Source: Escherichia coli (GTDB lineage Bacteria > Pseudomonadota > Gammaproteobacteria > Enterobacterales > Enterobacteriaceae). Taken from it: 64,000 bases of DNA. The position numbers and the translations under genes were made by a program. The stretch is from the NCBI RefSeq assembly GCF_044647545.1, contig NZ_CP172818.1; one strand, written 5' to 3'. The notes beneath the pieces are model-generated. The model was given only the letters and a program-made list of their open reading frames with translations, ran no database searches and was not told the DNA's origin. This document shows positions 17,640 through 18,430 of the stretch, one piece after another (the stretch's first letter is position 1; every line of letters starts with the position of its first letter).

Positions 17640-18430
17640 AATTTTGATGCTATTTACACAGTATGCCGCGTACAAACAAACCAAAAAACAAAACCCCGAG
17701 AAAAAACAAAAAACAAAAAAAAAAAAAAAAATTCCAATTAAGCTTCACAGACAAATTTACTAAAAACGAATAACCAATAGAAGAGAAGCAATGCTTAGTT
17801 AATCAGCCATTCAGAAACCCCCACTTAACCAATACCAAACTTAATATTAACCCATAAAAAACACCACCAAAACTCAACATTTAAAGATGTACTGCCATAT
17901 CTTTTTAGGGCATAATATACTCTTTTATTTATCTTTATTCCCTCAGATGATTCCCTCATCACAAATACCCCTCCCACCCATACGCCGTGTTTATCCCTAT
18001 ATACCCAACATTATCCCTCTCATCTGTTTGATACAAAAGAATTCTACATTAACATTAACCACCCCAACCACGAATGATATTACTTAAATCAATCAAAACC
18101 GATGATATTCATAGTTACTATACTATCTACTATTACTCAAAGCTATTTTAAAAACCACATAAACTATAAATATATCCTTATCCTCTGAAAAACATAAAGA
18201 TACCTTAAAAAAACAAATAATTAACACTTTATAATTTATGACGGACTCATAATCATCAACGACAATCACCACCAATCATTTCCAATTTTACAAACAATCT
18301 CTTCTCATATCATCCTTTAAACACTTTTTTAAACAAAAAAACACACTTTAACCTGGCTCATTATTACACATCTAAAACATCACAAAAATATCACTTCACA
18401 CACTATCGGAGAACATCATAACTTCTTAAA
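17640..18430 (+). other. G-depleted (about 5% G on + strand), A/C/T-rich non-coding tract including A17 homopolymer
   Basis: Hand count over 18001-18420 gives about 20 G in 420 nt; A17 run at 17715-17731 preceded by CAAAA-like repeats; only a low-complexity 66-aa ORF. Confidence 0.7.

Follow-up and report, generated by a model that had tools for sequence, protein, structure and literature searches.

A G-depleted tract between arsC and yhiS in a deposited Escherichia coli chromosome, probably a sequence-reconstruction artefact

Between arsC and yhiS of this E. coli chromosome, G nearly vanishes from the + strand over several hundred nucleotides. Is such a tract a natural element of the chromosome, the ruin of a gene, or a product of the way in which the deposited sequence was put together? 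We address this question with the base composition of the tract, its alignment to close relatives, and its position relative to the structural differences between these relatives and K-12. Throughout the text, the window is the whole 64-kb stretch of DNA that was analysed.

Composition and gene context of the tract

A sequence-only reading of positions 17640-18430 had described a tract in which G is nearly absent, with about 20 G in 420 nt by hand count, and in which C stays around 20-25%. Computed base counts bear out both statements. At 18001-18420 (420 nt), the counts are A 176, C 100, T 124, and exactly 20 G. Over 17640-18430, G accounts for 50 of 791 nt (6.3%), with C at 24.1%, A at 42.2%, and T at 27.3%. 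The A+T content of the tract is 69%, and the G content of the entire window is 23.9%. The strand asymmetry is indeed extreme. Calculated over sliding windows of 400 nt, GC skew has its minimum, -0.70, inside the tract; nowhere else in the 64 kb does its absolute value exceed 0.4 (the 1st percentile of skew is -0.33). The lowest G count per 400 nt is 17, found in the tract, whereas the lowest C count anywhere in the 64 kb is 55.

The limits first given for the anomaly hold up to 18338, but 18339-18430 is normal sequence. The anomalous segment is best bounded at 17501-18338, and normal sequence, identical to that of relatives, resumes at 18339. The names arsC and yhiS, assigned to the flanking genes from the letters of the DNA, are correct (Table 1). 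The ORF list likewise agrees that the tract contains no convincing ORF. The longest one, of 66 aa at 17887-18087, has no counterpart among called proteins. Tandem repeats in the tract are limited to an A-run (a period-1 repeat) and two trivial repeats. Upstream of arsR, Rfam AgrB (RF02891, 108 bits) matches at 15113-15196 (+), and a second AgrB-like copy of ~89% identity, presumably agrA, lies at 14865-14975. These agr copies (14865-15215) adjoin the dinQ type I toxin locus, which is an ordinary known arrangement.

Table 1. Features of the window around the G-poor tract and at the sites where FDAARGOS_497 and K-12 differ structurally
Feature	Position	Strand	K-12 at this site	Window at this site
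1-nt deletion relative to FDAARGOS_497, in a yhiL-like DUF4049 gene	13		18-nt insertion	1-nt deletion, adjoining the 18-nt K-12/FDAARGOS_497 indel
pitA-uspB			insertion of ~150-177 nt	clean
arsR	15345-15698
arsB	15732-17042
arsC	17055-17480	+
arsC and 20 nt downstream, with the GGGGGATATGCCCCC hairpin	17055-17500	+		last normal stretch
arsC-yhiS spacer	between arsC and the yhiS-like ORF		316 nt replacing 1,714 nt	1,173 nt, with the G-poor tract
Noisy copy of a K-12-type BIME (two REP units)	17501-17663	+		single HSP with K-12 up to 17663
Low-complexity junk, nearly all A and C	17664-17734	+		A-rich run at 17701-17731
3' half of the ArsP_1 (PF03773) permease gene and the downstream spacer, copied with base dropout	17735-18338	+		core of the G-depleted tract; colinear alignment
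Normal yhiS upstream region	18339-18653	+		100% identity to CFSAN061771 and FDAARGOS_497
yhiS-like ORF	18654-19874			slp, then dctR beyond
3-nt deletion and a substitution inside the yhiS-like gene	deletion 19396/19397; substitution 19365 (32 nt upstream)	+	IS5 at 19396/19397	3-nt deletion exactly at the junction
chu haem-uptake island	21369-29010		absent (36 nt replacing 9,059 nt)	1.4 kb missing (chuS and the chuA 3' end); ~155 errors, 65 gap openings
Replaced REP-like segment between yhjD and yhjE	48137-48230		152 nt replacing 133 nt	23 errors; G/T dropout including a G run; some K-12-like bases

Dropout of single bases from a permease gene

In FDAARGOS_497 and CFSAN061771, two intact and divergently transcribed genes, for a regulator and a permease, occupy the position between arsC and yhiS. 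They are EGY17_RS07440/07445 in FDAARGOS_497 and CA902_RS01290/01285 in CFSAN061771; the proteins are WP_001175590.1 and WP_000100281.1. The regulator of 106 aa matches the NCBIfam metalloregulator ArsR/SmtB model, and the permease of 333 aa contains a full-length Pfam ArsP_1 domain (PF03773, E = 1.5e-52). This gene pair is found at the arsC-yhiS position in chuA-positive E. coli. The permease gene is carried by 2,229 of the 5,426 complete E. coli genomes, and K-12 lacks the intact gene pair. In blastn, all 2,229 carriers align to the window at only ~77%, with gaps. When the spacer was compared with the 5,426 genomes by megablast, only its last 315 nt (18339-18653) matched, with 100% identity in CFSAN061771.

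Direct alignment reveals what the tract is made of. Positions 17735-18338 (604 nt) are colinear with the 3' half of the permease gene and the spacer that follows it, and nearly all of the differences are single bases absent from the window. The reference for this comparison is an 835-nt stretch of FDAARGOS_497 (locus L003, ~10166-11000). The LCS with this reference includes 574 of the 604 window bases (95%), compared with 449 for shuffles; DNA homology to the ArsP_1 permease gene is thus present at its syntenic position. The reading frame, however, is lost: no ORF in the tract encodes the ArsP_1 domain, and a tblastn comparison detects no more than 25 aa, at 56% identity. The window copy also differs from the intact pair in length (0.84 kb versus 1.7 kb) and in its 5' kilobase, which is replaced by the BIME-like stretch and the A/C junk. 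The junk at 17664-17734 takes the place of ~0.85 kb of true sequence, to which the permease gene contributes its 5' half and the ArsR-like gene most of its length. In the reference bins that match it, none of 53 T and 2 of 33 G are retained.

The missing bases are far from random. In 17735-18338, 95% of the reference A, 80% of C, 69% of T, and 21% of G are kept (chi-square p = 2e-58), so the window copy lacks ~79% of the G and 31% of the T. Of the reference G positions, 127 are deleted and 4 read A. In length, the tract falls 231 nt short of its template, with ~240 single-base deletions, ~20 substitutions (deletions to substitutions ~12:1), and insertions of only 10 bases. The dropout depends in part on context, since G is kept before A in 18 of 43 cases (42%) compared with 7-20% before C, G, or T, and it intensifies leftwards along the tract. 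The intact homologous segment has an ordinary G content of 22%, and because of this, G depletion is not a property of the locus. Instead, it reflects a base-specific dropout on the + strand of a gene of normal composition, in which G is affected most and T to a lesser degree. An earlier suggestion that the tract is a remnant of foreign DNA is right as far as descent is concerned, as the gene pair is accessory and absent in K-12. It fails for the G depletion, which does not stem from a foreign composition in view of the homologue.

Coincidence of the errors with structural differences from K-12

The tract lies within a sequence that is otherwise very close to a known strain. The window is 100% identical to FDAARGOS_497 over ~54 kb and deviates from it at five places only. 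Positions 1-17500 contain a single 1-nt difference, at position 13, and no differences are found at 29011-48136 or 48231-64000. The flanks of the tract show zero substitutions, whereas the tract itself contains more than 230 indels; it is therefore not a product of gradual evolution.

The five places coincide with structural differences between FDAARGOS_497 and K-12. With strain 4FA as the K-12 reference, in MG1655 coordinates, all structural differences from FDAARGOS_497 were listed across the span of the window. Of the six that measure at least 15 nt, five are matched by a deviation in the window, which has no others (Table 1). At all 20 indels of up to 4 nt and at the ~1,800 SNPs between the two strains, the window follows FDAARGOS_497 exactly. 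A living bacterium cannot know where K-12 differs from it. Errors that track K-12 breakpoints therefore point to an assembly with K-12-like input.

The arsC-yhiS spacer itself contains K-12-type sequence. A noisy copy of a K-12-type BIME lies at 17501-17663, where FDAARGOS_497 has none. The segment aligns to the K-12 BIME and to 'TGCTATTTACACAGTA', in which it terminates and which is what is left of the ArsR-like gene at its 3' end. In K-12, the spacer consists of the BIME and of 316 nt left over from a deletion in the same gene pair. The window differs from this arrangement in several ways. Its BIME-like copy has 83% identity to K-12-type BIMEs, with indels and with palindromes degraded relative to K-12; the K-12 spacer has a normal G content; and the flanks in the window are of the FDAARGOS_497 type. 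Among 5,116 matching genomes, the best identity to 17501-17663 is 83.4%, also with indels.

The other sites show related errors. The 3-nt deletion in the yhiS-like gene falls on the exact site of IS5 in K-12, at which the K-12 HSPs break. It leaves a product of 406 aa (WP_400165082.1) where relatives have 407 aa. In the chu segment, chuA, chuT, chuW/hutW, hutX, chuY, chuU, and chuV are frameshifted throughout, and the best identity of the segment in complete E. coli genomes is 98.1%. Its deletions remove G 22 times, T 18, A 12, and C 10, and its + strand substitutions comprise 38 A<->G versus 8 C<->T (p = 9e-6). The K-12-like bases at 48137-48230 suggest, as a weaker pointer, that K-12 may be involved there as well. 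The chu island and 48137-48230 share with the tract an error mode of dropout that affects G more than T and of purine-biased + strand errors. Such strand asymmetry fits errors in single-strand reads or in a consensus step, unlike fixed double-strand mutations. The apparent chu pseudogenes are very probably the same assembly artefact and not gene loss. The 3-nt deletion in yhiS is of the same artefact class, and so is the chu island, at lower intensity.

The blastn check for conservation that had been proposed gives a negative answer. Megablast, blastn, and direct alignment find the tract in none of the 5,426 complete E. coli genomes. An exact 32-mer of the tract matches none of 100,044 GTDB species representatives and no JGI metagenome contig. 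Among ~15 billion proteins, the 406-aa YhiS variant and a 130-aa ChuW fragment occur on one NCBI contig only. The source chromosome is 4,499,902 bp, ~0.7 Mb shorter than that of FDAARGOS_497; the regional clonal relatives FDAARGOS_497, ECONIH1, and MS6198 have 5.1-5.3 Mb. The small size suggests that islands absent from K-12 are lost or truncated genome-wide in the deposited assembly.

Explanations for the tract and their consequences

We consider the tract to be a sequence-reconstruction artefact of the deposited assembly in which a K-12-like sequence was involved, with a probability of about 0.9; the cause is read from the pattern of errors. It appears that a K-12-like sequence guided the building or polishing of the assembly, or that the data were mixed with K-12. 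Wherever the strain is colinear with K-12, this would yield a perfect consensus. Strain sequence that is absent from K-12 or replaced in it would receive a partial, error-laden fill. Between arsC and yhiS, the fill would consist of a corrupted K-12 BIME, the A/C junk, and the 3' half of the permease gene without most of its G and many of its T on the + strand. A dropout specific to base and strand would then produce the extreme GC skew. The strain itself, a close relative of FDAARGOS_497, almost certainly has an intact, divergent ArsR/SmtB and ArsP_1-family pair (1.7 kb) between arsC and yhiS.

Consensus and polishing errors at structural variants are a general class in reference-guided or mixed-sample assemblies. 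The window resembles this class in that errors are confined to segments absent or different in K-12, with perfect SNPs and small indels. Breakpoints are imprecise (a 3-nt slip, 1.4 kb missing), and bases are hybrid at some positions. It differs in its strong base-specific dropout, greatest by far for G and decreasing from T over C to A, with insertions nearly absent; we can assign this signature to no particular tool or chemistry. To our knowledge, no assembler or chemistry that can be named with certainty predicts both the retention order A > C > T > G and the scarcity of insertions. A pulse loss specific to G and T in single-molecule reads is a candidate cause, and some single-molecule instruments use one excitation channel for G and T; both serve as leads only. 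Two further observations speak against the artefact. The pure K-12 insertion at pitA-uspB was handled cleanly, and the record passed RefSeq annotation, with WP_400165082.1 as an existing protein accession.

The tract could instead be a real, catastrophically mutated pseudogene, in which a localised, strand-specific process deleted single Gs across the gene pair. The sequence does sit in a deposited and annotated genome. A biochemical process could in principle cause a dropout that is specific to base and strand and partly dependent on context; a translesion polymerase that skips template C during repair synthesis is a conceivable route. However, the strain would need such noise at three further sites (the chu island, 48137-48230, and the K-12 IS5 site), all of them precisely where K-12 is structurally different. 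The process would furthermore have to account for a K-12-type BIME in a clone that lacks one, and no second genome has the tract. We know of no bacterial process that deletes ~80% of G singly over 600 nt and leaves the flanks unchanged. A pseudogene of this kind is highly improbable.

A slowly decaying pseudogene, like the short one of K-12 but longer, is just as hard to sustain. K-12 does carry its 316-nt remnant of the same gene pair behind the BIME at this position, and anchors such as ATTCCAATTA, GCTTAGTTA, and GTTTAAAGA are shared. However, the K-12 remnant retains a normal G content of 21.5%. Natural decay of pseudogenes leads mostly to substitutions, and slow decay was rejected on the ~240 single-base deletions versus ~20 substitutions and on flanks identical to those of a strain with intact genes.

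Less probable again is a real burst of strand-specific single-nucleotide deletions, mostly of G, in islands absent from K-12-like strains, which would call for an undescribed template-skipping repair or retro-copying. We give as little weight to the idea of a natural AT-rich spacer, either curved or bound by H-NS at the edge of the acid fitness island, or serving as the template of a G-less or C-less noncoding RNA. Its A+T content and its position beside the horizontally acquired, AT-rich yhiS would suit such a spacer, as would nine promoter-like hexamer pairs. These are not clearly more than the 5.3 (sd 2.2) found in shuffles, though, and the promoter/terminator scan found no terminator in the tract. 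A scan of 15000-21500 against Rfam 15 gave no match in 17481-18653 at E <= 1, the sole strong match in the neighbourhood being AgrB. Both proposals, which came from the sequence-only reading, thus lack support. Dropout from a gene of normal composition fully explains the composition, and selection for a function cannot be argued for a tract found in no other E. coli. The question of H-NS-silenced DNA is probably moot, as the tract would not be present in the cell.

The least probable explanation is deaminase-type hypermutation of a foreign gene, in which C-to-T changes on the minus strand appear as G-to-A on the plus strand; a strand depleted of G and enriched in A is what APOBEC editing, fungal RIP, and bacterial deaminase toxins would leave, but the changes in the window are deletions and not transitions (127 G deletions versus 4 G-to-A, in a tract 231 nt shorter than its template), and this candidate was rejected.

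For users of sequence data, the finding is one of data quality. A RefSeq-annotated E. coli chromosome appears to be corrupted wherever it is structurally different from K-12, and the source assembly should be flagged. The false features in this window include the G-less tract, the frameshifts throughout chu, the loss of chuS, and the unique 406-aa YhiS variant. Searches of the record for unusual composition, pseudogenes, or gene loss will go on picking up such sites, and these hits should be discounted. Judged from its letters and those of its relatives, the feature is with high probability not real biology. Its biological significance is accordingly minor: beside its ars operon, the strain most likely carries an ArsR-like regulator and an ArsP-family permease that are both intact and ordinary.
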